This document shows positions 3,239 to 30,912 of a DNA stretch of 64,000 bases, piece after piece; the stretch's first letter is position 1, and each line of letters starts with the position of its first letter. The notes beneath the pieces were generated by a model that saw nothing but the letters and a program-made list of their open reading frames with translations, ran no database searches and was not told the origin of the DNA. Location: the sequence record OP079919.1. The stretch is one strand, 5' to 3'. This DNA comes from Klebsiella phage KPN8. The position numbers and the translations under genes were made by a program.

Positions 3239-3667
3239 ATGCCTGATAAACTTACTGTATCACTTTTTAAGCTTATAAAAAACCACACTGGGTTAACGTT
3301 AAAGGAAGGCGAATTCTCTTTAACGGGAGAAAGACCCTTTTGGTTCAGAATACCTCCTTTTCCCCTTAACCCTAGTTCAAGAGAGAGATTGAGAGATCTC
3401 TTTCAAGATAACTTTGATGTGACTGTAGTTGATTATGTTGACGATTACCAGATCATATTCAGCCAAATTGAACCAACAACTTCTCGTCGTATAAAACGCG
3501 TCAGGAACATCCTAGATGTGTTAGAAAGAGAGTACGGTAGAAACTGTCTCAGACCAGAAACCGGTAGAATCTTGAGCGGATATTACTCTACCCATAAAGA
3601 CAGAATAGAACAGGAAGAACTTGCTTATAATAAAAAGATTTTAAATGAAGCGTTACGAAGACGTTAA
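3239..3667 (+). CDS. hypothetical protein
   Basis: 142-aa ORF. SD GAGGTAAAGGGG upstream. Confidence 0.5.
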   Translation: MPDKLTVSLFKLIKNHTGLTLKEGEFSLTGERPFWFRIPPFPLNPSSRERLRDLFQDNFDVTVVDYVDDYQIIFSQIEPTTSRRIKRVRNILDVLEREYGRNCLRPETGRILSGYYSTHKDRIEQEELAYNKKILNEALRRR

Positions 3668-3708: not shown

Positions 3709-4029
3709 ATGACGTACAATGAAGTCGAGAAATATCTGGAAATGGGAGAGGCCGTCTCTAGGCGTAGTTGGAAAGCGAACGAAGCGGTTTATTTAGAGCC
3801 GACGACGTTACTTAATCCAGCGCACTATCCTGAGTGTTTAAAAGCCGCAGGTATTAACTCCCTTTTGAGAGTCGATCGACATTTAGTGCGTGTTACCGCG
3901 AGTAACACTGTTGAGCGTTTTATTCCCAACTTTGTAGAAAGAAACGAAAACGATTGGTACGTTAAAAGTTATACCTTCGAACAAAATAAAGCATTACCAG
4001 AACATAATCAAGCACAAGAAGTCGCATAA
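3709..4029 (+). CDS. DUF2829-like protein (Tad2-like candidate)
   Basis: N-terminal MTYNEVEKYLEMGEAVSRRSWK fits the DUF2829 N-terminal signature (F/Y-x-E-A/V-x-x-x-L-x-x-G-x-x-V-x-R-x-x-W). C-terminal FIPNFVERNENDWYV fits the DUF2829 C-terminal W/F-x-P-S/N-x-x-D-x-x-A/N-x-D-W-x-V signature. Confidence 0.55.
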   Translation: MTYNEVEKYLEMGEAVSRRSWKANEAVYLEPTTLLNPAHYPECLKAAGINSLLRVDRHLVRVTASNTVERFIPNFVERNENDWYVKSYTFEQNKALPEHNQAQEVA

Positions 4030-4089: not shown

Positions 4090-4163
4090 TATTTTACATG
4101 TATTCTTTTTTGGATCGATATTATTTATGTGTAAACCTCAATAACTTTTTAGGAATCAACATC

Positions 4164-4379
4164 ATGAACGGTCTTTTTGGAACAGGTTGTTTGCTGTTAG
4201 GTGCTGCAGTGTATTTCTTCCTGAAGTACCTGGAACTGCGTAAAGATTTTAAAGAGAATAAGATTAAAGACAAGGGTCGGGCGTCTGGGTATAAAAATGC
4301 CTATTTCTCTTTAACCATTTGTGTTTTGGGTCTGGGTGTCTTTTTAATGGTTAATGGGACTCTGTTGGAGATCAGATAA
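4164..4379 (+). CDS. small membrane protein (two predicted TM segments)
   Basis: Start chosen at the ATG preceded by the TTTTTAGGAATCAACATCATG motif. This is an in-frame later start within track ORF 4098..4379. Confidence 0.5.
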   Translation: MNGLFGTGCLLLGAAVYFFLKYLELRKDFKENKIKDKGRASGYKNAYFSLTICVLGLGVFLMVNGTLLEIR

Positions 4380-10076: not shown

Positions 10077-10080
10077 TTTG

Positions 10081-10160
10081 GGAAATTGGGGGCGTATTTT
10101 TAACTAACGTACCATAACGTCCCCCCCCCACTCCAATTTAGTCAAACAAAGGGTGTTATG
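10081..10160 (+). repeat. conserved ~80-bp upstream element, copy A, containing a C9 tract (10121..10129) inside an inverted repeat AATTGGGGG / CCCCCAATT
   Basis: Aligns along its length with 22505..22580. Both copies end in ...AGTCAAA(C/T)AAAGGGT...ATGATGAC, the start of a tail-spike gene. Confidence 0.8.
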
Positions 10161-12299: not shown

Positions 12300-12357
12300 C
12301 CTTTGCTGGATGGTGATTGGTCGACGCCGGTCTAAAACTAATTTGTTAGGGTCATTT

Positions 12358-12391
12358 AAAATCCAACCGGTCTTAAGACCGGTTGGATTTT
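12358..12391 (+). terminator. rho-independent terminator (AAAATCCAACCGGTCTTAAGACCGGTTGGATTTT)
   Basis: Perfect palindrome with a T-run, immediately downstream of the stop of tail spike 2. Confidence 0.7.
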
Positions 12392-12433
12392 ATGCTTACC
12401 GATATTTCAACCTTCCTGACCCGAGGAATAGCA

Positions 12434-14665
12434 ATGACTTTACCAACGCAAAAACCTATTCCGAGTTCATCCATAACTGATCAATTATTTAATGCCGAAA
12501 AGATAGATCAGGTTGTTAACTCGGATGAACTAGAATATTCCGATCGTTTCGGAAAGAAACGATTCACCTTTTCAGGATTATACAACGTTGTACAGAATTG
12601 GATCAGCAGTTTGGGGTCAAGTTCCGGGGCGTCAGCTGTAGGTCTTAGCCAGGGCGGTACGGTTCAGGCCGGTCTCTACAACGTTGTTAATGTCGAACAA
12701 TTCGCTTATCTCAATACTTCAGATGATGATTGGGGTCCGGCTTTTAGAGGGGCCAGGGATAAAGCAATCGAGATATCTGCTCCGGTCGTTACTTTTAAAG
12801 GTCAGTACAAAATAAAAGTAAGCTCCGGTCCGACCACTCACACCCTGCCTTTCGACGACGGAACTTACGATACAAGAAGAACTGGCGAAGTTTTACTTTC
12901 TCCAGAAACCTTGAATACAATGCCTGTAGGATTGGAATGGCCTTCCGGACTCTCCCTTAAATCAGACGGGATCGGAAATAACTCAATTACTTTCGATTGG
13001 GATAATGCCACTGTTGGGCTGTCTCAGGGGATTGGTATCTGCATCAGGGTCAGAAACTGGGACGGAACTTATCTTGCTAAGGCCGGGTCAGTTAATCGCA
13101 TGAATAGCGATATAGCCAATGTGGAGTTTGATGGGTTTAGCGTAAATAATGCCTTTATCGGAATACTGGCCGACGGTATCGTGGGATCAGTCAGTTGGGG
13201 CAGTCTCCAGTTTAAGAAATGTTTCTTACCTATGACTTGGCAGGGCGCCGACAGATGCACGATTAAGAAACTGAGATTTACAGATTGTCCTACCGGATTC
13301 TCGGTAGGTGGATGGTGGCTGACCCGTAACGACATATCAGGATCCAATACCGGATTGGGGGTCCCGCCTTACATTGCAGGAACCGACGTGTACTGCATCG
13401 GATGGATGGACTTCGTTAAAATTGAATCTCTGGAGTACTCTAATAGTACTTCGTTTGACAATTCCCCGTTGTTTGCCGCGGTAGATACTTTCTTCGACAC
13501 CTATTTCTACAAAAGCGCGAACAGCGCTAGAACTGCTAGTGGTGGTCGATGCACTAATACAGGCCCTAACCTAACTAGCGCGAGTACGTTAGCGGCAGAT
13601 TCTCCGTTCTTAGGTATCGCCGGGCGCGCTCACTCACAAATGGGGCGTTACCACCGAAATCACATCTTGAATGAAATTATTTCTCTCAAGACGTGGGGAT
13701 GTTTCAGGGCATCAGTCCTTACCACTGCTAATGGAAACTCGGAGCTCAACGTCCCGGGGTGCATAGTGGGTACCGCGTACATCGAACAGGCCTGTAAGGT
13801 CACGGTTGGCGGTGACGCCACGGTGGGGGGAAGTAATGACTTCGTTACATCAGGTAAAGATGTTTGGAAAGGGACAAAAACTTATTCTAAGTATTATGCT
13901 GGTGAAGGATCCGTAATCGTTAAAGATGGATGGTCTGTTAATAGTTTGGGGTTGTTCCCGTCAGCGCGGACTGTTGCAAGAAATGATAATGGGTATAATA
14001 ACAGACTAAGAAGAACAATTGTCGACGATGGCACAGGGAAACCGGTCATACTCGAACAGCTTTCTGAAACGGTCTATGCGACCCCTCCTCAGAAATTTAT
14101 TCCTAACGCCGTGGGTTCAGTAGACGACAAATATTACTGGGTTCAACTAGAAAAGAACGTCTCTTCAAAGGCTACTATTTATTCTGGTGTTCCAACGACG
14201 GCGGCGCAAACACCTATAACCTCTCCGGCCATTAAAGTAATAATGGAACGTTTAGGTAACAGAGTTAAATTAAAAATTAATTTGGATGCGTCAAATTACG
14301 CAGCCGGCGGCAGTAATCCGGTGGTAATCGGATTTACTGGGGTCTATAAACCTATTCTTACTGCAAGTCCCGATTACGCCCTTGGGGCGTACGGTCCGGT
14401 GAGACCCATAATGGTCAGCACCAAAACATTTACAGTTACCGATTCTACTTCAGTGAGTCGGACGTTTAGGATCGAGCCGGTCGCGCATCAAGCTGGGGTA
14501 TTCACTGATGGCGGCGGGGTTAATAATTACTACTTTGTTTTGCTCACCCAGCATCATACTTCTGACACTAATAGACTGTTGTGGTCGGATTTCACCGGTT
14601 CGTTATGTCAGATAGAAATAGAATATGATACGAATGACGCTATCACTTCATCCAGCGTATTTTAA
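12434..14665 (+). CDS. tail spike protein 3
   Basis: Start set at MTLPTQKPIPSS, which restores the conserved N-terminus. The track start at 12383 lies inside the terminator hairpin. SD GAGGAATAGCA upstream. Confidence 0.75.
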   Translation: MTLPTQKPIPSSSITDQLFNAEKIDQVVNSDELEYSDRFGKKRFTFSGLYNVVQNWISSLGSSSGASAVGLSQGGTVQAGLYNVVNVEQFAYLNTSDDDWGPAFRGARDKAIEISAPVVTFKGQYKIKVSSGPTTHTLPFDDGTYDTRRTGEVLLSPETLNTMPVGLEWPSGLSLKSDGIGNNSITFDWDNATVGLSQGIGICIRVRNWDGTYLAKAGSVNRMNSDIANVEFDGFSVNNAFIGILADGIVGSVSWGSLQFKKCFLPMTWQGADRCTIKKLRFTDCPTGFSVGGWWLTRNDISGSNTGLGVPPYIAGTDVYCIGWMDFVKIESLEYSNSTSFDNSPLFAAVDTFFDTYFYKSANSARTASGGRCTNTGPNLTSASTLAADSPFLGIAGRAHSQMGRYHRNHILNEIISLKTWGCFRASVLTTANGNSELNVPGCIVGTAYIEQACKVTVGGDATVGGSNDFVTSGKDVWKGTKTYSKYYAGEGSVIVKDGWSVNSLGLFPSARTVARNDNGYNNRLRRTIVDDGTGKPVILEQLSETVYATPPQKFIPNAVGSVDDKYYWVQLEKNVSSKATIYSGVPTTAAQTPITSPAIKVIMERLGNRVKLKINLDASNYAAGGSNPVVIGFTGVYKPILTASPDYALGAYGPVRPIMVSTKTFTVTDSTSVSRTFRIEPVAHQAGVFTDGGGVNNYYFVLLTQHHTSDTNRLLWSDFTGSLCQIEIEYDTNDAITSSSVF

Positions 14666-14680
14666 CATTTAAGGTGTGAT

Positions 14681-16441
14681 ATGACGCTCCCAACTCAAAA
14701 CGCTGTTCCTAGTTCAGCTAAGAACGACCAGCTCTTTAATGCTGAAAAAATAGATCAGGTCGTCAATAGTGACGACCTCCAGTACACAGATCGCTTCGGT
14801 AAGAAGCGATTTACTTTCTCTGGTTTATACAACATAATCCAAACATGGGTTGCGAGTTTAAGTGATACCACCGGAGCAGGATCGGTCGGGATCGCGCAAG
14901 GGGGGTACATCCAGCAATCTCTTTTGGAAGTGACACCGATGATGCAAGGTGCCGTAGGAGACGGCGTCGCTGATGACTCACAGGCGTTGATCAAAACATT
15001 TACTACTGCTAAAACACTTGGATTGCGGGTTAAAATAGATCGCGCTTATCTTTGCTCCTCAGCGCTTGCCGTTTCTGGACCGCTATACTTAGAAGGAATC
15101 AACCCGGAAACAGGAAAAATTATTTTTACAAATAAAGATGACTTCGGTCTTTACATTACTCAGATCAAATCCACAGACTTCATAACCATAAAAAATATCA
15201 GCATTACGGCCGGAGCTAAAATCGTTAATCCAAAGGGCCTCCTAACCATCGACGGAAGCTCTCAATTAACAACTGATCAGTCGGCAGGCAAATACCTCTT
15301 AGCAGATAGGACAATCCGCCGCGGGCTGTTGGATAATGTTAATCTCGATTGCCTTAGTGGGAACTACGCGGTTAACTACCTTAACATTATTTCATGGATG
15401 AATTATTCCGTTAGAAACATATTGATAAGAGGGTCAAGGGACAACCTGTCGGCGCTCACTAATGGAATACTTTTAAACGGCGATGGTTTCCCCGTCGACA
15501 TCCACATGACCGACCTTTTGATGTATAACCTAGGTCGGGCTATTAACTCCGTGGATTACGTGGAAGGACTCCACATTTCAGAGTTTGAATTTGTAAACGT
15601 TTTAAGGGGGATTAGCGCCGATTACGACTCAAATTATTCCAAACTCAGCTCATCGGTATGCGGATGTTACGGACCTATGATTCACACGGGTCATGTAAAC
15701 CTGGGAACGATGACTGGCGCTGACTCATGCATTTACATTAAAAATACTGTCACTCCTCGTATCAAAGATCTTTTGCTTTTCAATAGCGCCGGCGCTGCCG
15801 TCACAAACAGTTACGGGGTTTACGTTTACGGATCAACCAGCGGTGGGGAAATATCCAGCGTTTATGTTGCGGGTGGTGGTGCCGCCAACACGAAGACCAA
15901 TAATTATTCAATTAGAGTATATGGCGCCAATGGATTAAACATCAAGGACTGTACCGGAAGCTATGCGGGAGCCGTAGTGTATCTTGAAGGGGTTTCCACT
16001 AACTGTGTCATATCAGGAAATAGTGGTATCAGCACCACTAACGTCGTTTATATTTTCAGTGCCAATAACGCCAACAATAAAATAACTTCTGATAACTCGG
16101 GAATAGGAATCACGGATAAGGTGGTCGGCGGAGATCCTAGCGGGTCTTATGTGGAACCTCTAATCTGGCAGAGGAAGTACACACTGAATTTAGCCGCGGC
16201 CAAAGATGCCGGGACGTCTTTCACTTTTAACGTCCCGATTCCCGGGGGAAATTTTGGTGTTGCTCCAGATGCCGCTTTCGCGACATTACCCTCCAATCTT
16301 ATCGGACAATTTTCATATAACCCTTCGGCCAGTTCAGCAACAAGTCTGAATGTAACCATTTATTTTATCTCGGCCGCAGCCATAGGGAGTTACGATATTT
16401 TAATTTCGGCAGCTGGTTTTGGCGTAAGCAGAACGCAATAA
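14681..16441 (+). CDS. tail spike protein 4 (pectate-lyase-3-like beta-helix)
   Basis: Conserved N-terminus MTLPTQNAVPSS...DRFGKKRFTFSGL, paralogous to spike 3. Motif QGAVGDGVADDSQALIKTF resembles the GxxGDGxTDD signature of pectate-lyase-superfamily phage depolymerases. Confidence 0.75.
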   Translation: MTLPTQNAVPSSAKNDQLFNAEKIDQVVNSDDLQYTDRFGKKRFTFSGLYNIIQTWVASLSDTTGAGSVGIAQGGYIQQSLLEVTPMMQGAVGDGVADDSQALIKTFTTAKTLGLRVKIDRAYLCSSALAVSGPLYLEGINPETGKIIFTNKDDFGLYITQIKSTDFITIKNISITAGAKIVNPKGLLTIDGSSQLTTDQSAGKYLLADRTIRRGLLDNVNLDCLSGNYAVNYLNIISWMNYSVRNILIRGSRDNLSALTNGILLNGDGFPVDIHMTDLLMYNLGRAINSVDYVEGLHISEFEFVNVLRGISADYDSNYSKLSSSVCGCYGPMIHTGHVNLGTMTGADSCIYIKNTVTPRIKDLLLFNSAGAAVTNSYGVYVYGSTSGGEISSVYVAGGGAANTKTNNYSIRVYGANGLNIKDCTGSYAGAVVYLEGVSTNCVISGNSGISTTNVVYIFSANNANNKITSDNSGIGITDKVVGGDPSGSYVEPLIWQRKYTLNLAAAKDAGTSFTFNVPIPGGNFGVAPDAAFATLPSNLIGQFSYNPSASSATSLNVTIYFISAAAIGSYDILISAAGFGVSRTQ

Positions 16442-16554
16442 TCTTTTAGTATTTAATAGATTGAGGGCGTGTAATCGATAATAACTGAGGGATGATGATT
16501 AAATTTATATTACGTCGACTTCATCCCAGATTGATCGTCATTTAGGAGTTTTCA

Positions 16555-18696
16555 ATGACACAGCCAACTCAGAATCCTATTCCCAGTGGGAATATACTGG
16601 ATCAGATTTTTAACGCAGAAAAGATAGATGAAGTTGTCAACAGTGGCAGCGAGCAATATACGGATAGGCTGGGAGTTAAAAGATTCACTATAGCCGGACT
16701 CACTGCTTTAGTCAGAAATTTGATCAATTCGATATCGGGGAATACTGGCGGAGGGAACGTAGGATTAGCTAATGATGAAATGCTTCAGTCTTATTTGGAT
16801 AAGTACGAAAATGCGTCATGCTCGATCTTCAAGTTCCTTTCCCCAGAAGAAGCTAGAAATGCGAATTTAAAACTTCTCGTCAATATAGACCAGGCAGTTG
16901 CCTCCGCAGCCGATGCTGGCGTGAGTTCCATTAAACTCCCACCCGGACACTTTGAGTTTAATACCACCACAATGCTTTATAATGTTTGTATTGTGGGTAG
17001 TAATGAATCAGAAGCCCCAGATCTTCAACTCGAAGCGACAGATGGCTCTTCAGGGAAGTTATCACTGAATACCAAAGGTACCGTATTGCACCTTACTGGT
17101 AATTCCGCAGCAAATGGCATCACCTTTAATACGAATACCCCGTCGTCTTCTGTAGTTGGGGTAAGCCGTTGTTCTGTTTATTATCCCGATCAAGACTGGG
17201 CCAACTGGTCAGTGGGAGGGACAGATATAGATGGCGTGACTTATTATCAGCCGACGGTGTACCCGGCGGCGTTTATAATAAACGGTGGAATGCGGGCTTT
17301 CTTCGATAAAGTCTTTTTTATCAACGCATATCAATGGATAGAAATAAGAGACACCCAAATACCGATGATCGGTAAGATAGCGGGAACCCTCATCAATCGT
17401 GGTGTTCAGATCACACGTATGGGAGCGGGAGGATACACGGATACGGTTAACTCCTATCCTTTCTGGACATGGGCTTGTGGGTTTAGGGGTAACTCCATGC
17501 GAGCCAACCTGTACCAAACCTTTAAGGGAATTTGTTATGAGGTAGGTAACGATGACGGAACGACGCGAACTGTAGAACAGATGCTGATTAATCGTCTTAA
17601 CGTTATCGGGTGTGCGGACGGACTCATTTGTGGTGGAAAGGGCGTGACGCTCAATAGCGCTAAATTCGATAACTGTATGCGAGCCATCACGGTTAACAGT
17701 TTGGATAATTCTGCTTACCACAGTTTCAGCAATGTCTGGGCGTCGTGTTATTACAATAACAATTATGTGTTTAAACAGAGAACTGATGGGAGCGTTTACG
17801 TTTTCTCTACGAATAGTTCGACCCCTGTAAATATTAATAATTTTAATGTTGTAAGATCCGACGGTATAGGGATAAACATGCCGTATGCCTCTGGGTCAAA
17901 CATCAGTAATGTGGTCATTCAACAATTGGGTTGGAAAGGGTTTGTTTTGGGTTCTGCCGGAAGAAGCACAGACGTGTTGAATGTTAACACGTGTAATGTG
18001 AACTTTTATACCGGGGATTCGGCTTTAACCCAGATAGGTTATGAGATTGGCGATTTTGTAAGATGCTCGATTAAAGGACTGCAGTACAAAGGTGGGAGTA
18101 ACGTAACGCCTTACGTCATGACAGGGACATTGAATCCGTACGAATCCGGCAAAGAAATAGATTTAAGTTCTCTCGACGGCCCGCTTTATAAAGGGGTAAG
18201 CCAGTCTATCGTTTCTGTTATTCGTGGGAGAATACGCCGTCTTGTGGGGGTAACAGCAAGTTCTACAGACAGTGTTCTCGTGACATCGTTATCGGGGACT
18301 AATACCGGCGGTACAGCTTTAAACTGCGGCGTGGGTGTAAGAAACACGGTATCAACCGGAAATGGCCATGGGGTGTTAGTACTTTATTCGTCTAAGGCGG
18401 GAGAGCTCGTTGAGACAGCAGAAGTTTTTAACGACGGAGCCGTTTTAGGGGTCAGGCCGCGATCAACAACTGCCGTGCTAGGAGATACGAGTAACCCTTG
18501 GAATTCGGCGGATATAAAAACCATCAGGGCGACCTCGTCGATTACACTTAACGGCAATCCAGTTGGGGTTAAAGTTAGTGTGCCGGCGTCAGCTACCGCC
18601 ACTGGAGTGGTAGGTCAGTGGGCGGCCGATACGACCTATATCTATATTTGTGTGGCCACCAATACTTGGGTGAGGGCCAGTTTAGCAACCTGGTAA
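16555..18696 (+). CDS. tail spike protein 5
   Basis: Conserved N-terminus MTQPTQNPIPSGNILDQIFNAEKIDEVVNS...DRLGVKRFT. TTTAGGAG SD motif upstream. Confidence 0.75.
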   Translation: MTQPTQNPIPSGNILDQIFNAEKIDEVVNSGSEQYTDRLGVKRFTIAGLTALVRNLINSISGNTGGGNVGLANDEMLQSYLDKYENASCSIFKFLSPEEARNANLKLLVNIDQAVASAADAGVSSIKLPPGHFEFNTTTMLYNVCIVGSNESEAPDLQLEATDGSSGKLSLNTKGTVLHLTGNSAANGITFNTNTPSSSVVGVSRCSVYYPDQDWANWSVGGTDIDGVTYYQPTVYPAAFIINGGMRAFFDKVFFINAYQWIEIRDTQIPMIGKIAGTLINRGVQITRMGAGGYTDTVNSYPFWTWACGFRGNSMRANLYQTFKGICYEVGNDDGTTRTVEQMLINRLNVIGCADGLICGGKGVTLNSAKFDNCMRAITVNSLDNSAYHSFSNVWASCYYNNNYVFKQRTDGSVYVFSTNSSTPVNINNFNVVRSDGIGINMPYASGSNISNVVIQQLGWKGFVLGSAGRSTDVLNVNTCNVNFYTGDSALTQIGYEIGDFVRCSIKGLQYKGGSNVTPYVMTGTLNPYESGKEIDLSSLDGPLYKGVSQSIVSVIRGRIRRLVGVTASSTDSVLVTSLSGTNTGGTALNCGVGVRNTVSTGNGHGVLVLYSSKAGELVETAEVFNDGAVLGVRPRSTTAVLGDTSNPWNSADIKTIRATSSITLNGNPVGVKVSVPASATATGVVGQWAADTTYIYICVATNTWVRASLATW

Positions 18697-18703
18697 TAAT
18701 TAT

Positions 18704-18735
18704 TACTCCTTCTCCGGTTAACCGGAGAAGGAGTA
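18704..18735 (+). terminator. hairpin TACTCCTTCTCCGGTT-AACCGGAGAAGGAGTA
   Basis: 16-bp perfect palindrome after the stop of spike 5. A second hairpin, AGACTTGCGCAAGTCT, follows at about 18772. Confidence 0.55.
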
Positions 18736-18821
18736 ATAGATACGTCCGATTTTATGCTGATCTAAATTCAGTAGACTTGCGCAAGTCTTTTATACTACAT
18801 TCTTTTTAAAGGAGTAACCTC

Positions 18822-20711
18822 GTGGCTACAACTCCAACTACGGGTGATATCCCCAGCAATGCTGCGGTGGACCTTAAGTTTAACTCGGAACAATTCGACC
18901 GAGTAATGAATTCTGACGATCTGACTTATACGGATCGTTTTGGTAAAAAACGTATTACAATGAAAGGGGTTCAGGAACTCGCTAATGGCTTCCAGGATAC
19001 TTTCACTAATCTGTTGGGTTCTCCCGACGGGTTCAAATTAATCGGCGGGGTTAAATCTTTTGATACCCTGAGATCGACACCAGTGAGAACCGAAGGCCAA
19101 CGTATTTTCCTCAAATCCTATTATGAAAACGGAGTTACTGGGAGTGGGATTTTTATTGGGCGCATCGGAACAAAATTAGATGACGGTGGGACAGTAGCTC
19201 AGGGAATTGGATATTACTGGGAACGTATTCCTTGGTCGAGTCTTACTGCGGAAGACTTCGGAGCAAAAGGTGACGGCGTTACTGATGATAGCTCGGCCAT
19301 ACTAGCTGCCGTGGCTTTTTCCTCAAGCACCGGAACATCGATGGGTCTTTTATCTGGCAAAACCTATGTCTTTAAAGGATCTGTTGGATTATCGATCGAC
19401 CTGGGTAAATTTTCTTTCGGTTGTTTTAACGGGAGAAGTAAACTTGATTTTTCTGCTTTCACCGGATCCAACGCAATAAATGTATTTAGTTCCCCGGGCT
19501 ACCCTACCTCCATGTACAGAAACACAACTAACAGACTGATAGGTTTGGAGGTTTACGGTGGGTTAGTTGCTGGCGTAAACGGCTTGCTGCTGGGGCACGA
19601 CGATTATTCCTACAATGGTCAAAGTGTGATAGAACACTGCGCCTTTGTCAGGTTCGATAATGTGATTCTTTGCGGCAAGAACACATGGCGAACTAAGTTT
19701 ATTTGTTGTACAGTCTCCACCGGAATAACCTCGGTCTTTAATGCGCCTGCGGGATTAGAGAATTCAGGAGAATCGGTGACGTTCTCCGGATCGCAAATTA
19801 GCGATTCAAACGGAGCCCCTATTATTGTTAACTGTGCTAGTTTTTCCCTGGGGCTTGTCGGGGGGACTTCAGTACTAAATACACGCATCCTCATTAACGC
19901 CCAAGGCGCGACGGTACTGATGGATGACATGGGTAACGAAGAAAACCCGGGTCAGCAGGGCTTTTATGTTTACGCTGATGTTAAAGGCGCGGGAGCCCGA
20001 CTAATTATCACCAGTTCTACGATAGTTTGCAATAACCCATCAGCTCAAACTAAATCTTTGTTTAATGTCGATCAAAACGCATACATCATCCTTAACAATG
20101 TAAAAATGCAAGGTAATGGTTATAAATTCGAAGTAGATCCGACAGGCGACCAGGTTGGGAAATGGATTAGCGGGAAAGGTAAAGTCTTGGTATCTGGGGT
20201 TACGGGCGATCCGTTATCAGGGGCAGGAAATATCCCAATCCACGAATCGTTGTCACCGATCAGGAACTGGAACTTTGATTCGGGAGATCTGAGCGATTGG
20301 ACCATCAATAATTCAGGATCCGCATCCCAAACCGGAGTGGTCGGTACGGCGTATAAAAAAGTAGGGGATTACGGCCTTCGTCTTACTTCAGTGGCCGGCC
20401 TTAATGTTTTTGCTACCTCTTCTTTCCCTGTGAGACCTGGCGGGTATTATAAAACAAGTTTCTGGGCCAAAGTAGTTACCGCCAACTCAGGTGCGACTAG
20501 TGCCGGCAACCTCACCCTGTCGTTCAAAACAGCTTCCGGAGTACAAATAATCTCACAAACCGCCAATCTTCCTTCCGCGGTCACTGATTGGGCTGTTTAT
20601 GGCGCATTCATTTGTGGGGACGTCCCTGTAGGGGCTGTCACTGCTGAGATAAGTCTGAGAGCGTCTTCCGGAGCTGTGGTTGATTTCGACGCGGTTCTTT
20701 TTAATTTTTAA
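18822..20711 (+). CDS. tail spike protein 6 (pectate-lyase-3-like depolymerase with C-terminal carbohydrate-binding-like domain)
   Basis: GTG start. Conserved N-terminus MATTPTTGDIPSNAAVDLKFNSEQFDRVMNSDDLTYTDRFGKKRIT. Motif AEDFGAKGDGVTDDSSAILAAV. C-terminal about 150 aa (NWNFDSGDLSDWT...GYYKTSFWAKV) resembles CBM4/9-type domains. Confidence 0.75.
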   Translation: MATTPTTGDIPSNAAVDLKFNSEQFDRVMNSDDLTYTDRFGKKRITMKGVQELANGFQDTFTNLLGSPDGFKLIGGVKSFDTLRSTPVRTEGQRIFLKSYYENGVTGSGIFIGRIGTKLDDGGTVAQGIGYYWERIPWSSLTAEDFGAKGDGVTDDSSAILAAVAFSSSTGTSMGLLSGKTYVFKGSVGLSIDLGKFSFGCFNGRSKLDFSAFTGSNAINVFSSPGYPTSMYRNTTNRLIGLEVYGGLVAGVNGLLLGHDDYSYNGQSVIEHCAFVRFDNVILCGKNTWRTKFICCTVSTGITSVFNAPAGLENSGESVTFSGSQISDSNGAPIIVNCASFSLGLVGGTSVLNTRILINAQGATVLMDDMGNEENPGQQGFYVYADVKGAGARLIITSSTIVCNNPSAQTKSLFNVDQNAYIILNNVKMQGNGYKFEVDPTGDQVGKWISGKGKVLVSGVTGDPLSGAGNIPIHESLSPIRNWNFDSGDLSDWTINNSGSASQTGVVGTAYKKVGDYGLRLTSVAGLNVFATSSFPVRPGGYYKTSFWAKVVTANSGATSAGNLTLSFKTASGVQIISQTANLPSAVTDWAVYGAFICGDVPVGAVTAEISLRASSGAVVDFDAVLFNF

Positions 20712-20764
20712 TGGTGAGCTAGGGGAGGGGGCGCCCTCCTCCCTTATTTATGAGGTTTCTAAAA

Positions 20765-22480
20765 ATGACCACGCCTACCAATAATGACATTCCGAGCAGT
20801 TCGGTACAAGATAGGTTGTATAACGCCGAGAAATTTGATGAATTCATGAATTCATCGAACACTAATTTCACTGATCGCAAAGGAGTTTCACGATGGACAC
20901 TAAGCGGAATCAGAACTGTTATAAGTAACTGGATGACGAGTCTGAGTAGCAATGCAGGCGGAAACACCATAAAGGTCGATAATGCGCTACTACCAGACTT
21001 GGACTATGCGCCGAGCATTTTTAGATTTATGACCGACGCAGATATCGATTCGATGAAGAACACTCTGGGTAGCGAAGTTCCTGTCGATTACGCCTTACAA
21101 GCAGTTATCGATGCCGGTTATAAGTCAGTCAGATTCCCCCACAACGTTAAGGGCATCTATATTCTTTCTGGGTTGGTAACACTCCCTTCAGCCTTCACAA
21201 TCTTTGGAACGTGTTCCAAACCATATAGTAGTATTACCGACTCTTCCTTCTTAAATAAAGGGGTGACTTTACGTAAAGCCGTCGGGGCGGATTATCTGTT
21301 CGGAGCCGGTTCGGTATTCAGAATTTATGGGTGTAATCTAGATGGAAGAGACAACCTTCGCCCTCTAATCAACCAGACCAATCAAATACGCGGCGGAATA
21401 TTAGAAGATTGCGGGATCTACCGTTTTCTTTATGGAGTCGGGAGTTATGGTTACACCTCTATTGTTGTTAAACGATCATCCATTTGTTCAAATAACATAG
21501 GAATAAGGAACCTTATCGACAGCCGTATTATGGACGTTACCCTCAATGCCAATAAAGGTAACGGGGTCGATAACCAGGTCGGGGCCAATAATAATATTTT
21601 TGAAAACGTCAGGAATGAATGGAATGAAGGGATAGGGTATTATTTTTATGGGTCGGTGGGGAACATCATTACTGGTGAACTTATTGATAGATCTGGTTCG
21701 GCCAATGTTGTCGTCCTGGCCGGTGGATCCGCATTGATTTCAGGGGTTATCTCCCAACGACCCGCTCGTACGTTGAGTGAGGACTCAAGTTATAACACTC
21801 ATTTCTATGTGGCCGGAAGTAAATCAAAACTTTGTTTATCCGGTGTAACTACGGCAACGGGCATTGACGACGGGGGTACCGGAACTTTAACGCCACAAAG
21901 GACAATCGTGATAGGCGGGACGAATACCGACGTGACCGTTCTTTCTAGCGGGTGCGATTTATCGGGAAGTATTCTCTCGCCGTTAAGATTCGACGTTACT
22001 CCAGCTACGGTAGGATTTAGAAACAATATTGGCGTTGACGACTGGGTTAACACCGGGCAATATCAGTTCATCAAAGGAAGAGCGTCGATCGGTAGTCAGA
22101 AAAATGCGGTGATCTTGGCCAGTGGTGTGGGGAGTACCGCGACGTTAGTTTTTGATAACACAGGGTTCGTCGACCCCACTTCTAATTTCCCCGATATACC
22201 TAAGAAACGAAAAATTATCATAGAAAGCATGACTTCGGTATCGGCTTCCAGAACTGTAGGTTTTTATGAAGTTTCGTTATTGACCAGGCGTTTCTCTAGC
22301 ACTGCCGGTTTTGATGTCTTACAGGAAACATCTTATCCTGCTGGAGCGTGGGCGCGGACTACCGCAACTGGTGTTTCTATAAACATTGCCCTCTCAGCGG
22401 ACGCCAAACAGATAACAGTTACGCTAACCAACGTAGATGGCGTCGGAAGATTTATAGATGCTGCTCTTAAGTGGGATTAA
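20765..22480 (+). CDS. tail spike protein 7
   Basis: Start at MTTPTNNDIPSSSVQDRLYNAEKFDEFMNS. Full-length diverged paralogue of spike 8. Confidence 0.7.
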   Translation: MTTPTNNDIPSSSVQDRLYNAEKFDEFMNSSNTNFTDRKGVSRWTLSGIRTVISNWMTSLSSNAGGNTIKVDNALLPDLDYAPSIFRFMTDADIDSMKNTLGSEVPVDYALQAVIDAGYKSVRFPHNVKGIYILSGLVTLPSAFTIFGTCSKPYSSITDSSFLNKGVTLRKAVGADYLFGAGSVFRIYGCNLDGRDNLRPLINQTNQIRGGILEDCGIYRFLYGVGSYGYTSIVVKRSSICSNNIGIRNLIDSRIMDVTLNANKGNGVDNQVGANNNIFENVRNEWNEGIGYYFYGSVGNIITGELIDRSGSANVVVLAGGSALISGVISQRPARTLSEDSSYNTHFYVAGSKSKLCLSGVTTATGIDDGGTGTLTPQRTIVIGGTNTDVTVLSSGCDLSGSILSPLRFDVTPATVGFRNNIGVDDWVNTGQYQFIKGRASIGSQKNAVILASGVGSTATLVFDNTGFVDPTSNFPDIPKKRKIIIESMTSVSASRTVGFYEVSLLTRRFSSTAGFDVLQETSYPAGAWARTTATGVSINIALSADAKQITVTLTNVDGVGRFIDAALKWD

Positions 22481-22504
22481 GTAGCTAAATTCCTTATTAG
22501 TAGT

Positions 22505-22580
22505 GGAATTGGGGTGTTTTTAACCAACTTACCATTGTCTTTTGCCTCCACCCCAATTCAGTCAAATAAAGGGTTCAATG
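22505..22580 (+). repeat. conserved upstream element, copy B (no homopolymer; CCTCCACCCCAATT)
   Basis: Aligns with 10081..10160. Confidence 0.8.
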
Positions 22581-24311
22581 ATGACCGCACCGACTAATAA
22601 CAATGTACCGAGTAGCTCGGTTCAAGACAGATTGTACAATGCTGAAAAATTCGATGAATTTATGAATTCGGATAATCCCAATTATACCGATCGTAAGGGG
22701 AACTCCCGCTGGACTCTGAATGGGATAAGAATAGCCATATCCAATTGGATGACGTCATTGGGTACGTCAGTCGGGTCAGCCTATATTGGTAAAGGAAACG
22801 ATACTGTATCCAATCTTTTAGAGGCCTCCATCACTGAATATCTCACCGCTGAAGATCAAAATACACTCAGAAGTTCGTTGGGGGCGGAAGTCAATGTAGA
22901 TTATGCTTTAAAGGCAGCGATCGACGCAGGTATTCTCCGATTAAGATTCCCTAGGATGATAGGGATTTATGTTCTGGGCGCCGACCCTGTTACCCTTCCA
23001 ATAGGCTTTTCTATGGTCGGGGATAGAACCAGGTTATATACAGCGCCTTCCGATTCTACCTTTCTTAACAAGGGTACTGTGCTAAGATTAAGTTCCGGAG
23101 CCTCTTCGCTGTTCTTGTTAACTCAAAAGCATCAGTTTAGCGGAATTAATTTCGATGGCCGTGATAAAACGGTTAACTTAATGAAAGGAGCGGACCAAAC
23201 TCAATTCTGTAGGTTCTATAATTGCGGAATCCATCGATGGTTAAACGGATTGGGCGGATCTTCTTCAGGCGGATATACGGCTACACTTTCAGTATCTTTT
23301 TGTGATATTTCTGGAAATTATCGGGGCGTGCGTAATCTTATCGATTCCAAAATATCGGATAGTACCATTAACGCCAATGACACCAATGGGGTCGAACTTA
23401 ACGTAGGCGCCAATAACAACGTCTTTATTAATGTCAGAAACGAATGGAACAATGGCGTTAACTACTACGGGTATGGGGGTAAGCGCAACATCGTCGTCGG
23501 GGAGCTATGCGATCGAGCCGGACTCAACGGAATTGTTGCTGCGGGAGGCGCCCAGTGGTCCCTCGAAGGAGTGAATGTGCAGCGTTCGGGCAGGCTCGCC
23601 ACCCAGGGATCTGTCGACGACGCCCATTTCTATGTGACTGGTGAAGGATCATCTATCATAATGAGCGGAGTTTACACAACTCAAGGCTCTGACGATACAG
23701 GGGGTGGGAGAGTCTCCCCGTCGTACACTCTGGCTGGTGGAGGAAATTCATCTGACACGAAAACATTCTCGGCCGTGAACAGCGTCTTGAGCGGATTTGG
23801 GGTTTCAGCGATAAGACCTGGGTCCTCCACTTTCTCTAATATGAGCGTTGTGGGTTGTAACGGCTTTTACGATAGAATATCCGGAAACACAATAAATTTC
23901 TACGAAGGAAACTTCTCTTTGGGGAAAAGGGCTTCGTCGTTGAGTTTAAGTGGAACGGGTTCTACGGCACAGATCACATTCCCTACAACAGACTCGTTTC
24001 CGCAATACAGGGTGGGTTTTACCAGACAGTTGCATATAACAGCTAGGAACAACATCAATACGGGATCGGTCGCTTATTACAACGTCCCGCTATTCTTTTA
24101 TAGAGAACAATCGACCGCCGTTGTGCGAGCGAATACAAGTAAAGAAGAAACAATGGTGACCCTCAGCGGAGGAACTTGGGGTTTAACCGCGGCGTCCCCG
24201 ACCGGGGTCGCTATTGACCTGGCGGTTTCTTCTGATGGCCTGACGTTAACCGTAACGCTGACAGCCATCGATAACTCATCAAGAATCATTGATGTGGAAC
24301 TGAGGGCTTAA
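22578..24311 (+). CDS. tail spike protein 8
   Basis: Start at MMTAPTNNNVPSSSVQDRLYNAEKFDEFMNS, matching the position of spike 2's start within the conserved element. Confidence 0.7.
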   Translation: MMTAPTNNNVPSSSVQDRLYNAEKFDEFMNSDNPNYTDRKGNSRWTLNGIRIAISNWMTSLGTSVGSAYIGKGNDTVSNLLEASITEYLTAEDQNTLRSSLGAEVNVDYALKAAIDAGILRLRFPRMIGIYVLGADPVTLPIGFSMVGDRTRLYTAPSDSTFLNKGTVLRLSSGASSLFLLTQKHQFSGINFDGRDKTVNLMKGADQTQFCRFYNCGIHRWLNGLGGSSSGGYTATLSVSFCDISGNYRGVRNLIDSKISDSTINANDTNGVELNVGANNNVFINVRNEWNNGVNYYGYGGKRNIVVGELCDRAGLNGIVAAGGAQWSLEGVNVQRSGRLATQGSVDDAHFYVTGEGSSIIMSGVYTTQGSDDTGGGRVSPSYTLAGGGNSSDTKTFSAVNSVLSGFGVSAIRPGSSTFSNMSVVGCNGFYDRISGNTINFYEGNFSLGKRASSLSLSGTGSTAQITFPTTDSFPQYRVGFTRQLHITARNNINTGSVAYYNVPLFFYREQSTAVVRANTSKEETMVTLSGGTWGLTAASPTGVAIDLAVSSDGLTLTVTLTAIDNSSRIIDVELRA

Positions 24312-26654: not shown

Positions 26655-29225
26655 TTAACTTACATAAATGGAAGTTAACGATAACTGAGAGAATATCCCT
26701 GAAATGTACGCCTGAACGCCTCGTGTCCCTACGGTGTAGCGATCAATAAAACTATTCATTTGGGTCGAACTAGTTCCTGAATAGTCAGTCCCTGAAACCG
26801 ACACGGAGGTTGTTCCCGATAGAGTATTGACTGAACTGGTAATATTAGTGGCGATGGATCTCGCCAAAATACCACTTCCGGGATAGTCAATTTTAAAAAC
26901 ATCAAAAAAGGTATTACCGGATTGCAAATGGGTGGCCTGCAGACAATTTCCTTTGGCCACATACAAAGCGCCGGACCAACTGCTATTATTTACTCCGGTA
27001 TTCCAGATCATCAGAGAAGAAATTGGTGTACCTGAGTTATTATAATAGGAGCAGTCACTTAACCGGAACCATTGGGCTAAATTCAAATTAGATGATGTGA
27101 CCGAACTTAACGAGTAGTCGCCGGAAAAACTTACCCCTGACGCTTTCAGTCTGTGAAGGAACGCCGAATCGGCGGTCGTTAAAGGCAAATTAGTCCCTGA
27201 TTTGACACTCCCTCCCCTCATGTTAATTTCTACACGTTGATTGGCTTCCTGGGTGCCGTCGTTGGTAATGAACCTTGATAACTCACAGTCGTTGAAATTA
27301 TAGGACCCCCTTTGTGAGATTCTCACTAGGGTGGGGGTGCCGTTGTAATTGGGGTTGTGTAATCTCCTAGCGTCGAGCCTGATATTGTGTTGAAATCCGT
27401 AAGATGGACGTTTGATAATTAAATTATCCACCCCTACGTTGTTCATACTGACTTTCATGTCGATAGGTTCGAACATAGTGTCGGTCGATGCAGAAGTATT
27501 GCTTGCCCTGGGCTTCGTGTTGGTGAAATCAATTTTTAACGTCCCGCCGGCGGCGTAGGTAACGTTGTCAAATCGAATATTCATAGGAGGAGTAACCGTT
27601 CCGTCGCGGTTTATCCAATAAATATTTTGAAGGCAACTAGAAGCTTCCGGAGTCTCAATAGTCAAGCCATCAATATCTATTTTATTAAATAGCTCACCGG
27701 CCATCTGAGACCCAGTAGGTAAAGAAGTGTAATTATCGGCGGCTCCCTGTACAATGGACCCTTCTCCATTGGACGCTAAACTGTAATATTTCCAAAATCC
27801 TCTGACCCTGACGTTACGCATAATCAGCGTCCCATCGGTGATTCCTCCGGAAGTAGTCCTGGCCTGCACAAGTGAAGGGAAAAGAAATTTTCCGTAGTAA
27901 GGGTCTCCGGATCCTCTCCCCAGTTCGTATACTGTGTCAAGTATCTCGAGAGTTGAGTTTTTAGTACCTAAGAAAACAGCAGCTCCGTCACCAATCTTGC
28001 AGTTTACAAGTTTGTAATATCCGATGCTTGGGTTATGGCTATCGAAGTTGTTGGCCGAGCAATTATCAAAAATGGTATCGGCTATCCAACCGGCCGCGGA
28101 TATCGACCCCCATCCGTAGCCAAACGCGTTTACGTTTCTTACGTATAACTTCGCCCCCCACCCATGGTGGAGTGTGTAAGATGCATAAGTGGTCGTTTGA
28201 TCCGAGGAAGAAAAGGAAGCGGTTGGGTGAGCGTCGTAGATGAAATCCACGTAGGTGTTGTAGTAATACTGAATGTCGATAACGTGACGTGATCCTATTT
28301 CCGTAATCGGTTTATTGAGTATTCTCCCCTCTTTTATGATCAAGTTGGACACATAAAAGAACTGGAAGAATATAGGTCTAGGCCCATAACGATAGTCGAC
28401 GTCCGGCATAATAAATTCACTGAAACCAGCCTGGATAGGTAGCGCCGATATGCTAGTAATCGACGTCCCGTTGTAAGGGAAGACGTTATCCATTTTGCCG
28501 TTAGCACTTATCCTGGTTACGTGAGCGAGTTTCTGAGTTTTTGCGCCAGCTTGGGTTTGTGTGCTATTATAAACATATAGGTCGTCTGAAAAATTCATAA
28601 TGACCATGCTGTCGTTTAAAGTCGTGTCCGATCCCAACGAATCTAAACAACCGTTTCCGCTTAAGAAGTCTGTGGAGGCATTAGTATTTAACTTAGTTAC
28701 CACGGAAGATCCGGAGGCATGGTTAACTAATCCGCTCGATTGAGAGATCCAGAAAGTCCCGGTAAAATCAGCCGCCGGAATAATTTTCATTCCCCCTAAA
28801 TCGGTCTTCTTATTATCGATGATCCAGTTAAACTTGGCGTTACCGGAAATCAAGTACTCACCAGATTTTTGTTTTATAGGAATGCCCGTCAATGTCGACA
28901 ATTGAATAAGGGCTAAAAGTTTGTCGGTGACGTCAACATCCCCCGTGTTCTCTATACCAAACATGTCACAGGAAAGAAATGTTTGAAGGTTAGAGACTTT
29001 ACCTCCATAAGGAAGATTTATAATTGACGACCCGTCCCCTCCGGTTAAAACATTCAGGGTTTCCTGGACGGCCGCCGCTACCCCCTTAGCGGTCAATCTC
29101 TGGTTACCAAAACGATCAGTATAGGTATTCTCATCGGAATTAATGATCTCATCTAACTTTTCGGCATTAAATCTAACATCTATAGCGGTGCTACTGGGTA
29201 TACCATTTTGTGTTGGAGTCGTCAT
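26655..29225 (-). CDS. tail spike protein 9 (856 aa) on the opposite strand
   Basis: N-terminus MTTPTQNGIPSSTAIDVRFNAEKLDEIINSDENTYTDRFGNQRLT, the same anchor as spikes 1-8. Long N/S/T/G-rich beta-helix-like body. Confidence 0.75.
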   Translation of the reverse strand: MTTPTQNGIPSSTAIDVRFNAEKLDEIINSDENTYTDRFGNQRLTAKGVAAAVQETLNVLTGGDGSSIINLPYGGKVSNLQTFLSCDMFGIENTGDVDVTDKLLALIQLSTLTGIPIKQKSGEYLISGNAKFNWIIDNKKTDLGGMKIIPAADFTGTFWISQSSGLVNHASGSSVVTKLNTNASTDFLSGNGCLDSLGSDTTLNDSMVIMNFSDDLYVYNSTQTQAGAKTQKLAHVTRISANGKMDNVFPYNGTSITSISALPIQAGFSEFIMPDVDYRYGPRPIFFQFFYVSNLIIKEGRILNKPITEIGSRHVIDIQYYYNTYVDFIYDAHPTASFSSSDQTTTYASYTLHHGWGAKLYVRNVNAFGYGWGSISAAGWIADTIFDNCSANNFDSHNPSIGYYKLVNCKIGDGAAVFLGTKNSTLEILDTVYELGRGSGDPYYGKFLFPSLVQARTTSGGITDGTLIMRNVRVRGFWKYYSLASNGEGSIVQGAADNYTSLPTGSQMAGELFNKIDIDGLTIETPEASSCLQNIYWINRDGTVTPPMNIRFDNVTYAAGGTLKIDFTNTKPRASNTSASTDTMFEPIDMKVSMNNVGVDNLIIKRPSYGFQHNIRLDARRLHNPNYNGTPTLVRISQRGSYNFNDCELSRFITNDGTQEANQRVEINMRGGSVKSGTNLPLTTADSAFLHRLKASGVSFSGDYSLSSVTSSNLNLAQWFRLSDCSYYNNSGTPISSLMIWNTGVNNSSWSGALYVAKGNCLQATHLQSGNTFFDVFKIDYPGSGILARSIATNITSSVNTLSGTTSVSVSGTDYSGTSSTQMNSFIDRYTVGTRGVQAYISGIFSQLSLTSIYVS

Positions 29226-29338
29226 CTCTCCCTCCGACTATAAAAATTAACGGCCACACATATTACTATGCATGACTCCTAATGAACTTGGGTCATAAAA
29301 TTCAACATGATATTAATCTACATTATTGAGGTTTTATT

Positions 29339-29614
29339 ATGAAATTTACTTCTGCTGTTGCAAAACTCAAACCCGGTTACGGGATTCAGTGCACCGATTG
29401 GAATGGTGCTAATCAATTTGTTTTTGATGCCTCTTTGACCATGTCTCTCGTTGAAGCACGCAAACAGGGATTCCCGGGCCCGGTTAAACTGAAGCCGGTT
29501 TACGTGTTGCATAACGCTAAAGGTGAGCTGCAACCTGGTTGGGTGCCGTCCCAGGGCGATCTTCGCAACGAGAACTGGATCGTTGTCAAAATCAAAGACG
29601 CGTTGGCGAAATGA
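29339..29614 (+). CDS. DUF2829-like protein (Tad2-like candidate)
   Basis: N-terminal MKFTSAVAKLKPGYGIQCTDWNG and C-terminal PGWVPSQGDLRNENWIVV match both DUF2829 signature blocks. 91 aa. Confidence 0.6.
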   Translation: MKFTSAVAKLKPGYGIQCTDWNGANQFVFDASLTMSLVEARKQGFPGPVKLKPVYVLHNAKGELQPGWVPSQGDLRNENWIVVKIKDALAK

Positions 29615-29937
29615 ACTACCATCTCTTCTTCGTCGTAGGATTGACGGTTTGTTTGATCGTTTTTAGTGTCTTTGACGATTACTACACGAAAAGAGCGATT
29701 GGGCTTAAAGGTTACGTTCCTTTCTGGGTCGTCGCCGTAATTCCAGGAAAATCCAAACTTAGTCTTAAACTGATTAAGTTTAAGATGACGTGTTATGTTT
29801 TAGTTTGGATTGCGTGGCTGGTCATTTTATCATCTCCGTTACCTTTTCTTGTTGCGTTGATGATGACGATCTTGGGATTGCTCAGTTGCATCATGTTAGG
29901 ATCGTTGCTTCACAACATCGCTCAATCTAAAAAATAA
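29611..29937 (+). CDS. small membrane protein (3 predicted TM segments)
   Basis: ATG overlaps the upstream TGA (ATGA). The track ORF 29539..29937 extends upstream in-frame, but the coupled start is preferred. Confidence 0.5.
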   Translation: MNYHLFFVVGLTVCLIVFSVFDDYYTKRAIGLKGYVPFWVVAVIPGKSKLSLKLIKFKMTCYVLVWIAWLVILSSPLPFLVALMMTILGLLSCIMLGSLLHNIAQSKK

Positions 29938-29940
29938 ATC

Positions 29941-29971
29941 TAAGTAGGAGAGGTTTCCCCTCTCCTACTTA
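29941..29971 (+). terminator. terminator hairpin TAAGTAGGAGAGG-TTTCC-CCTCTCCTACTTA
   Basis: 13-bp perfect stem. Confidence 0.65.
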
Positions 29972-29988: not shown

Positions 29989-30912
29989 ATGCCCATCATT
30001 ATCGTTCCAGTTAGCGGTGGGGTGGAATCCACTGCTTTACTCCATAAAGCCTTACAAGGTGACAACGAAGTTCATCCTGTATACGTTGCTGTCAACGGCG
30101 ATCCCAGATCATCAGTATTTGATTTAACCGCAGCCGAACATATAGTGAATTGGTTTGAAGAACATAAAGGTGGTTACGTCGGGAGATTAAGACCCTTAAC
30201 GTATATGATCAATCCGGTTTTCTTTCATCTCCATAACAACAACAAAATAGAAAACACTCCGGCCAATTATGGAGTGACCCAACAATTTCAATTGGTTTAC
30301 AACATTAGTCTTCTTCGATCTAAATTTTGGGATTGTAATCCAGGTGTCTGGATTGGTTGGTTAAAGGAGGATGGCAATGAATTTTCTTTTAACGAATACG
30401 ATTTCTCGGCAGAGGAGTATAAGGAACTCTTAAAATTACCCGTGACGCTAGGGACGTTATCTAATATAGATAGAACGTGTAAGCCTTTTAGACCCCCCTT
30501 CTGGGAAATGACTAAATCCGATGTTTATCTAAGCCTGCCTGAAGAGCTTAAAACTTTAGTCGTTCCTAACGGTTCCGAGTATTATAACGGAGACGGTGAC
30601 TTGGTCAGAACGCCTTGGAAAGCTAAAAGGAAAGAATGGATCAATGCGAATATACCTATTAAAGACAGTTATGTGTTTTCAGCAGCTCAGATCTCCCGCA
30701 TAGGGCGATACGCCGGAAAGAAACTCTTGGGGAAAGATTTCAATCTCTCTCCTAATTACGACGCTTTAATCGAATTAGTTTATCGAGACTCTCGATGGCA
30801 CCCACTCCCCTTTACCAATAAAGACTTCTACACCATTTGTAGTGCGAATAACTTAAAAGCCATCGTCAGGGAAGCCCAACACAACATCCCTGCTATCAAA
30901 CTAATCGGTTAG
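29989..30912 (+). CDS. PP-loop ATP pyrophosphatase superfamily protein
   Basis: N-terminal IIVPVSGGVESTALLH is an SGGxDS-type PP-loop with Glu in place of Asp. The motif sits at residues 9-14, as in QueC/MnmA/PAPS-reductase-like families. The family cannot be assigned by eye. Confidence 0.55.
   Translation: MPIIIVPVSGGVESTALLHKALQGDNEVHPVYVAVNGDPRSSVFDLTAAEHIVNWFEEHKGGYVGRLRPLTYMINPVFFHLHNNNKIENTPANYGVTQQFQLVYNISLLRSKFWDCNPGVWIGWLKEDGNEFSFNEYDFSAEEYKELLKLPVTLGTLSNIDRTCKPFRPPFWEMTKSDVYLSLPEELKTLVVPNGSEYYNGDGDLVRTPWKAKRKEWINANIPIKDSYVFSAAQISRIGRYAGKKLLGKDFNLSPNYDALIELVYRDSRWHPLPFTNKDFYTICSANNLKAIVREAQHNIPAIKLIG

Follow-up and report, generated by a model that had tools for sequence, protein, structure and literature searches.

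In a 64,000-nt stretch of the genome of Klebsiella phage KPN8 (OP079919.1), referred to here as the window, a short gene designated tad2 lies at 29339..29614 on the plus strand. Its open reading frame (ORF) comprises 91 codons between an ATG start and a TGA stop, is preceded by a Shine-Dalgarno sequence (GAGG at 29329-29332, 7 nt upstream), and encodes a stand-alone Tad2/DUF2829 domain protein of 91 aa, a description that draws on the ORF itself, Pfam, the PDB, an AlphaFold2 (AF2) model and dN/dS ratios. On its downstream side, the gene for a hydrophobic ORFan of 108 aa with 3-4 transmembrane segments by hydropathy (29611..29937, +) is followed by a hairpin (29941..29971, +) and by a gene for a 307-aa PP-loop-like protein that starts with MPIIIVPVSGGVES (29989..30912, +). 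On its upstream side, a divergent intergenic region (29226..29338) lies between tad2 and a minus-strand tail-fibre gene (26655..29225). Two further ORFs were judged spurious: 29318..29533 on the minus strand, which overlaps the conserved, selected tad2 frame, and 29539..29937 on the plus strand, a TTG-started upstream extension of the membrane-protein ORF.

Positions 27000-33000 of the window are 96.7% identical to Klebsiella jumbo phage Miami (MT701590, genus Miamivirus, 253 kb), in which the counterpart of the tad2 ORF is CPT_Miami_100. Miami has 124 proteins in common with the Erwinia phages RisingSun and Joad (PMC7844079) and is regarded as distantly related to the nucleus-forming phage RAY (10.1101/2023.02.24.529968). 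Across the five Miami-like phages (YC1, Miami, VB_ZK_P1, phiKp_32 and BUCTxx100), identity to the Tad2-like protein is 97-100%, and none of the five records names the product, which is annotated throughout, CPT_Miami_100 included, as "hypothetical protein". More distant orthologs come from three metagenomic contigs, L003, L005 and L006, with identities of 90%, 82% and 67%, respectively. By the Nei-Gojobori method, comparisons with Miami, L003 and L005 give tad2 dN/dS values of 0.029, 0.084 and 0.064, respectively, with dS as high as 1.7, and the overall range is 0.03-0.10 against orthologs that are 99%, 90% and 82% identical. The gene is under strong purifying selection. Its neighbours are less conserved: in L006, where Tad2 is 67% identical, the adjoining PP-loop-like protein is only 47% identical.

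The initial annotation had assigned the protein to the DUF2829 family from two conserved sequence blocks, both of which are indeed present in it, the N-terminal one (FTSAVAKLKPGYGIQCTDWNG) as residues 3-23 and the C-terminal one (PGWVPSQGDLRNENWIVV) as residues 66-83. The profile search that it had proposed as a check bears this out: residues 1-83 align to the complete Pfam PF11195 profile (Tad2-like, Thoeris anti-defense 2-like domain; positions 1-73 of 73) with 52.7 bits and E=6.3e-14 against a gathering cut-off of 25 bits, a score far above chance even given that 94 window proteins were scanned. In a single-sequence phmmer search of the PDB, the best match was SptTad2 (4.4e-7), followed by SPO1 Tad2 (7e-5) and ModTad2 (8.5e-5), and HgmTad2/AcrIIA7 was matched as well; a 24-sequence profile retrieved all solved Tad2 proteins, including HgmTad2, at 1e-15 to 1e-12 (SptTad2 at 1.1e-15). 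The profiles PHROG 1048 and 872, whose function is not known, also match the tad2 product, in both cases at the C-terminal end of the profile, and searches of PADLOC and NCBIfam with the same protein returned no match.

The predicted structure leads to the same family. The AF2 monomer model, built on the 24-sequence alignment, has a mean pLDDT of 87 and a pTM of 0.76, and its elements (H3-7, E14-18, E27-30, H37-42, E55-58, E64-66, H72-76 and E80-84) correspond to the Tad2 fold, namely an N-terminal helix, an antiparallel β-sheet and, in the loops between these elements, short helices. Foldseek, run on the PDB with this model, places only Tad2 structures (SPO1, ModTad2, HgmTad2 and SptTad2) in the top 24, all at probability 1.00 and with TM scores up to 0.69/0.79, and the next match has E>1. 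The family assignment holds by Pfam profile, by sequence match to every solved Tad2, by predicted fold and by the signature residues of the pocket described below, and the 91-aa protein is clearly a new, previously unlabelled member of the well-known Tad2 (DUF2829) family. It is, moreover, a small stand-alone phage-encoded protein of the same size as the validated sponges.

Of the characterised members, SPO1 Tad2 (Gp34.65; PDB 8SME/8SMF/8SMG), the sponge with which the Thoeris anti-defence 2 family was founded, resembles the window protein most closely in structure (Foldseek TM 0.69/0.77). It is likewise a stand-alone domain, of 89 aa compared with 91 aa here, and has in common with the window protein the W-N-G loop, the W-V-P-S-Q-x-D segment that holds gcADPR, and a short β2-β5 connector. 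The two differ in that identity is only about 30%, that the adenine-contact and water-coordinating residues are changed in the window protein, and that the latter carries an extra 8-residue C-terminal helix (KIKDALAK); in addition, SPO1 Tad2 comes from a Bacillus phage, whereas the window protein comes from a Gram-negative jumbo phage. HgmTad2 (AcrIIA7) and SptTad2 (PDB 8KBI-8KBM, 8WJC, 8WJD) are dual sponges for gcADPR and cyclic dinucleotides. SptTad2 is the best PDB match by sequence, and the gcADPR-pocket residues of HgmTad2 are conserved in the window protein, but the long β2-β5 insertion that builds the dinucleotide pocket of both is absent from it, its connector being about 24 residues long in the alignment compared with about 42 in HgmTad2. 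Of the HgmTad2 dinucleotide-pocket residues, N85 aligns to P66 of the window protein, while R31, S47 and F70 have their counterparts in the short connector, which is not alignable with the long insertion. ModTad2 (PDB 8V3E, 9EIB), a sponge for His-ADPR (type II Thoeris) and for cUMP/cCMP (Pycsar), resembles the window protein in length, connector size and fold, and demonstrates that members of this size class can have a second pocket; its identity is about 28%, and its motif reads W-T-P-S-V-S-D rather than W-V-P-S-Q-G-D. Also close are DUF2829 proteins of enterobacterial phages such as the E. coli phage IME_EC2 (gp24), the Escherichia phages Bas86-88 and the Salmonella phage vB_SalP_TR2, which belong to the same subfamily with 41-47% identity over the full length. 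These proteins are encoded by phages of unrelated types, in unrelated genomic contexts, and do without the C-terminal KIKD extension, and no characterised protein was found among them.

The initial annotation had also stated that the DUF2829 sponge Tad2 sequesters the signalling nucleotide made by TIR proteins, and the literature confirms this for 1''-3' gcADPR (10.1101/2023.05.01.538930). In SPO1 Tad2, W25 and W73 make van der Waals contacts with the ligand, N26 and D79 contact its phosphates and hydroxyls, T78, I63 and T65 are placed at the adenine, and D67, H71 and S76 hold waters (10.1101/2023.05.01.538930). In HgmTad2, the mutants W21A/N22A and S90A/T92A/D93A bind markedly less ligand, as reported by Li et al. 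(10.1101/2023.11.15.567273). Residues W21, N22, W68, S71 and D74 of the window protein align to W25, N26, W73, S76 and D79 of SPO1 Tad2 and, together with G23, to W21, N22, W87, S90, D93 and G23 of HgmTad2. The residues that contact the ribose and diphosphate (W21-N22-G23, W68, S71 and D74) are all kept, the positions of W21, N22, W68, S71 and D74 are 96-99% conserved among 173 relatives, and the pocket-forming residues are the most conserved part of the tad2 product. Close to the base, the protein has changed, relative to SPO1 Tad2, from T78 to G73, T65 to N59, D67 to K61 and H71 to P66 and, relative to HgmTad2, from T92 to G73, T82 to E63 and V84 to Q65. At the adenine-contact position occupied by G73, the 173 relatives have mostly G (100), followed by A (29), S (19), E (9) and T (7). 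Residues N59, K61, E63, Q65, P66 and G73 differ from those of every solved Tad2, and several of these base-proximal positions are invariant within the subfamily, whose signature reads "GWNGANQF ... NAQGxxQPGWVPSQGDL". Our literature search found no tested member of this 'NAQG..QPGWVPSQGD' subfamily; the primer sequences for Tad2_71 belong to a different protein.

The tad2 product is probably a counter-defence sponge of the Tad2 family that takes up an ADP-ribose-derived TIR (Thoeris) signal, most likely 1''-3' gcADPR (3'cADPR). If it works like SPO1 Tad2 and HgmTad2, the protein would assemble into a homotetramer with two pockets between non-dimeric protomers, each lined by the loop W21-N22-G23 and the segment W68-V-P-S71-Q-G-D74, in which the ADP-ribose-derived messenger produced by the TIR-domain (Thoeris) proteins of the host would be bound and sequestered, such that the Thoeris effector would stay off and the infected cell would be neither killed nor depleted of NAD before the phage has finished. 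Tetramer formation, ligand binding, ligand identity, the anti-Thoeris phenotype and the time of expression are what we infer for this protein. There is precedent for such activity, since four of five diverse Tad2 homologs inhibited type I Thoeris and, of 84 homologs tested from the sponge families Acb2, Tad1 and Tad2 together, 65 were active against one signalling system or more (PMC12393519). A literature search on the prevalence of Thoeris in Klebsiella gave nothing directly usable.

How far the conserved pocket predicts the ligand is a separate matter. In ModTad2, the same core residues go together with binding of His-ADPR, not of 3'cADPR (10.1101/2024.01.03.573942), hence conservation of the core does not fix specificity, and the changed base-contact residues mean that the exact isomer or signal may differ from 3'cADPR. 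A Tad2-fold sponge whose physiological ligand is not the type I Thoeris signal is thus a reading to be weighed, although we consider it rather unlikely. The candidates would be His-ADPR (type II Thoeris), N7-cADPR (type IV), a Pycsar cyclic mononucleotide or a CBASS cyclic dinucleotide, bound either by a canonical pocket whose base-proximal part has been rebuilt or by a second pocket within a dimeric unit. The family is versatile enough for this: it binds at least 3'cADPR, His-ADPR, N7-cADPR, cyclic dinucleotides and cUMP/cCMP (PMC12393519), its members inhibit CBASS, Pycsar and Thoeris types I, II and IV, some of them via the second pocket (PMC12393519; 10.1101/2023.11.15.567273), and SptTad2, the closest solved relative by sequence, was crystallised with cGG (10.1101/2023.11.15.567273). 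The six base-proximal residues that set the window protein apart from all solved Tad2 point in the same direction. However, its segment of about 24 residues is like that of SPO1 Tad2 and ModTad2 and lacks the long insertion of the HgmTad2/SptTad2 type, and W-V-P-S-Q-x-D is the form of the motif seen in the type I binders (SPO1, Hgm and Spt) and not that of ModTad2, because of which 3'cADPR is the most likely ligand. One may also argue that the DUF2829 fold here serves no immune or sponge role and is a generic module for binding small molecules or proteins, or an anti-CRISPR as was once proposed for AcrIIA7. Many relatives do carry the domain at the C terminus of proteins of 150-450 aa, PHROG 1048 and 872 are profiles of 211 and 172 positions that match at their C-terminal end, and one of the five homologs originally tested did not inhibit type I Thoeris. 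Such a role is nevertheless improbable, as the window protein is a stand-alone domain equal in size to validated sponges, its conservation peaks in the pocket-forming residues and goes beyond the fold alone, and the anti-Cas9 activity of AcrIIA7/HgmTad2 was not reproducible in the hands of Li et al. (10.1101/2023.11.15.567273).

A further alternative places the function in the gene neighbourhood, with tad2, the membrane protein and the PP-loop ATPase forming one functional module, such as a sponge joined to a membrane component and an enzyme that modifies nucleotides, in which alone the Tad2-like protein works; we regard this as the least credible of the readings. It derives some appeal from the arrangement of the genes. 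The initial annotation had described a coupled membrane protein and a PP-loop ATPase immediately downstream, and the coupling is real, with a 4-bp ATGA overlap between the tad2 stop codon and the start of 29611..29937 (+), while the PP-loop identity holds in part (an SGGVES motif and PHROG at 5e-7, but Pfam at only E=0.26). Moreover, relatives whose PP-loop protein is as little as 47% identical still have tad2 followed by the PP-loop-like gene. Comparison of loci tells against a module, however. The 108-aa membrane protein has homologs only in Miami-like phages and diverges much faster than Tad2 (62% versus 90% identity in L003); it is absent from L006 and also from L005, where an unrelated 115-aa gene placed after the hairpin takes its place. 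In addition, tad2 is parted from the PP-loop-like gene by a strong hairpin in the window and in L005, where the same hairpin directly follows tad2, or by a canonical terminator with a GC stem and a T-run (AAAAGGGCCGGGGTCGGCCCTTTTATTT) at the equivalent place in L006. Finally, each gene has homologs elsewhere on its own: a PP-loop homolog with 34% identity is found in another jumbo-phage contig without a Tad2 neighbour, and a Tad2 homolog with 44% identity, on a 77-kb contig, has neither neighbour. Given the loss or replacement of the membrane gene, the terminators and the lone homologs, the shared order is best explained as inherited synteny, and the three-gene module was rejected. The membrane protein is a lineage-specific accessory passenger of the tad2 unit. 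We thus return to the sponge reading with a gene that appears to be a self-contained short transcription unit, with or without a passenger gene, beside a variable tail-fibre gene, and neither neighbour looks to be needed for Tad2 function.

The likely 3' boundary of the tad2 unit is the hairpin at 29941-29971 on the plus strand, identified by RNA folding and by the comparative loci. It has a 13-bp stem, TAAGTAGGAGAGG-TTTCC-CCTCTCCTACTTA, and a folding energy of -25.3 kcal/mol (z=-6.7), lacks a clean T-run on the plus strand, and would act as the terminator that ends the tad2 transcription unit. At the other end, the region between the tail-fibre gene and tad2 (29226..29338), which includes the GAGG, presumably holds the tad2 promoter and 5'-UTR. 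It is about 90% conserved with L003 and L005, while synonymous divergence of the coding sequence is 0.8-1.7, near saturation. A sigma-70 scan upstream of tad2 gave a weak match at 29272-29301 and no more sites than shuffled sequences, and the conserved upstream 15-mer CTATAAAAATTAACG has no other occurrence in the 64-kb window. An inverted repeat at 29271-29297 (ATGACTCC..TGGGTCAT) folds marginally, with z=-2.0 at best, and in L006 (intergenic 2076-2181) a different repeat with a 9-bp stem stands in its place.

The PP-loop-like product of 29989..30912 carries the SGGVES motif at residues 9-14 and has weak PP-loop/QueC-like signals. It matches PHROG 1550 (QueC-like) at 5e-7 and PHROG 8825 (no known function) at 7e-27, and PF01171 at a sub-threshold E=0.26. 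A PDB sequence search was empty, and NCBIfam and PADLOC gave sub-threshold QueC hints. Its AF2 model, based on a shallow alignment, has a mean pLDDT of 68.7 with low confidence at residues 77-170; the best PDB fold matches are all PP-loop enzymes (ThiI, QueC, YcfA, GMP synthase and Cap9), though weak (E≥6.7e-3, TM≤0.33). The family is very small, with four clusters among 5.8 billion proteins in addition to PHROG 8825, and in phiKp_32 a TnpB (IS200/IS605) gene has been inserted just 3' of the PP-loop-like ortholog (L009 5128-6264).

On the opposite flank, the tail-fibre gene adjoining tad2 (26655..29225, -) encodes proteins of 856, 602, 556 and 659 aa across the relatives, and its conservation with L006 is confined to the ~70 residues at the N terminus. 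It is one of a run of large tail-fibre or depolymerase genes, located here and at 8196..24311 (+), that have K1-lyase, β-helix and Peptidase_S74 domains. The variability of the tail fibre suggests that receptor-binding cassettes are exchanged right beside the conserved tad2.

By numbering tad2 as a first copy, the initial annotation had implied a second one. The Pfam scan of the 94 window proteins does return two Tad2-like members, the other being a 106-aa protein encoded at 3709..4029 on the plus strand (PF11195 at 29.9 bits against the cut-off of 25; PHROG 1048), although most of the pocket residues are lost from it: W-K-A stands for W-N-G, and F/N/F/E for W68/S71/Q72/D74. It is too divergent to be seen in a tblastn search of the window with the tad2 protein or with the HMM of the close subfamily, and it is present only in Miami-like phages, at 91-92.5% identity. 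Copy 2 would be a sponge whose pocket has been rebuilt, or else a relative that does not bind. Two genes upstream of it lies a homolog of Acb1, the anti-CBASS 2H phosphodiesterase (2758..3225, +), which matches PF23474 at 49.1 bits (cut-off 27), PHROG 755 and the PDB entry for Acb1, 7T26, at 6.6e-5, and has the HxT and HxS motifs at residues 41 and 117. The ORFs that flank copy 2, 3239..3667 (142 aa) and 4098..4379 (93 aa), match no known family, and they could add to the counter-defence genes.

Elsewhere in the window, the Pfam scan revealed a NadR-like gene with AAA_28 and cytidylyltransferase-like domains (56182..57291, +), adjoined by a gene for a PnuC nicotinamide-riboside/NMN transporter (57292..57987, +); the coordinates of both follow from the lengths of the ORFs and from the annotation of Miami. 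The two could be a phage NAD salvage pair that offsets NAD depletion by Thoeris-type effectors. Together with the Acb1 homolog, they would fit a phage under pressure from nucleotide-signalling and NAD-depleting defences, and an arsenal against cytoplasmic defences would be sensible for a phage of the nucleus-forming type. A bolder proposal, which we hold to be distinctly doubtful, is that the enterobacterial 'NAQG..QPGWVPSQGD' subfamily, which retains the cradle for ribose and diphosphate but has invariant polar residues of its own (N59, Q65, P66 and G73) at the places where other Tad2 proteins contact the base, may sequester a signal not yet assigned to Tad2, or an unidentified TIR product, that the pocket-rebuilt paralog by Acb1 targets yet another molecule, and that this probably nucleus-forming jumbo phage carries a layered, multi-signal arsenal of sponges.

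The analysis makes a counter-defence gene that can be put to the test out of a "hypothetical protein" conserved in every sequenced Miami-like Klebsiella jumbo phage. Miami-like phages are candidates for therapy against multidrug-resistant K. pneumoniae, and a Tad2-type sponge, an Acb1 homolog and NAD-salvage genes help to predict which host defences (Thoeris, CBASS) they can surmount. The finding reveals no new mechanism and leaves knowledge of Tad2 unchanged; its interest would rise only if the subfamily proves to have a new ligand specificity, and the 'NAQG..QPGWVPSQGD' proteins are a reasonable pick for screens of Tad2 ligand specificity.

The cluster of Acb1 and copy 2 ends at a strong terminator at 4060-4089, and this hairpin and the one at 29941-29971 have the core GGAGAGG-N(3-8)-CCTCTCC in common, which occurs exactly twice in the 64 kb compared with 0 expected. 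Both hairpins close a Tad2-like transcription unit, and they may mark a class of terminators. Other long intergenic hairpins of the window, for example those at 2279, 18701, 25158, 38758, 48924 and 59337, have the opposite arm order, with the pyrimidine-rich arm first (ACTCCTACTCCC..GGGAGTAGGAGT).
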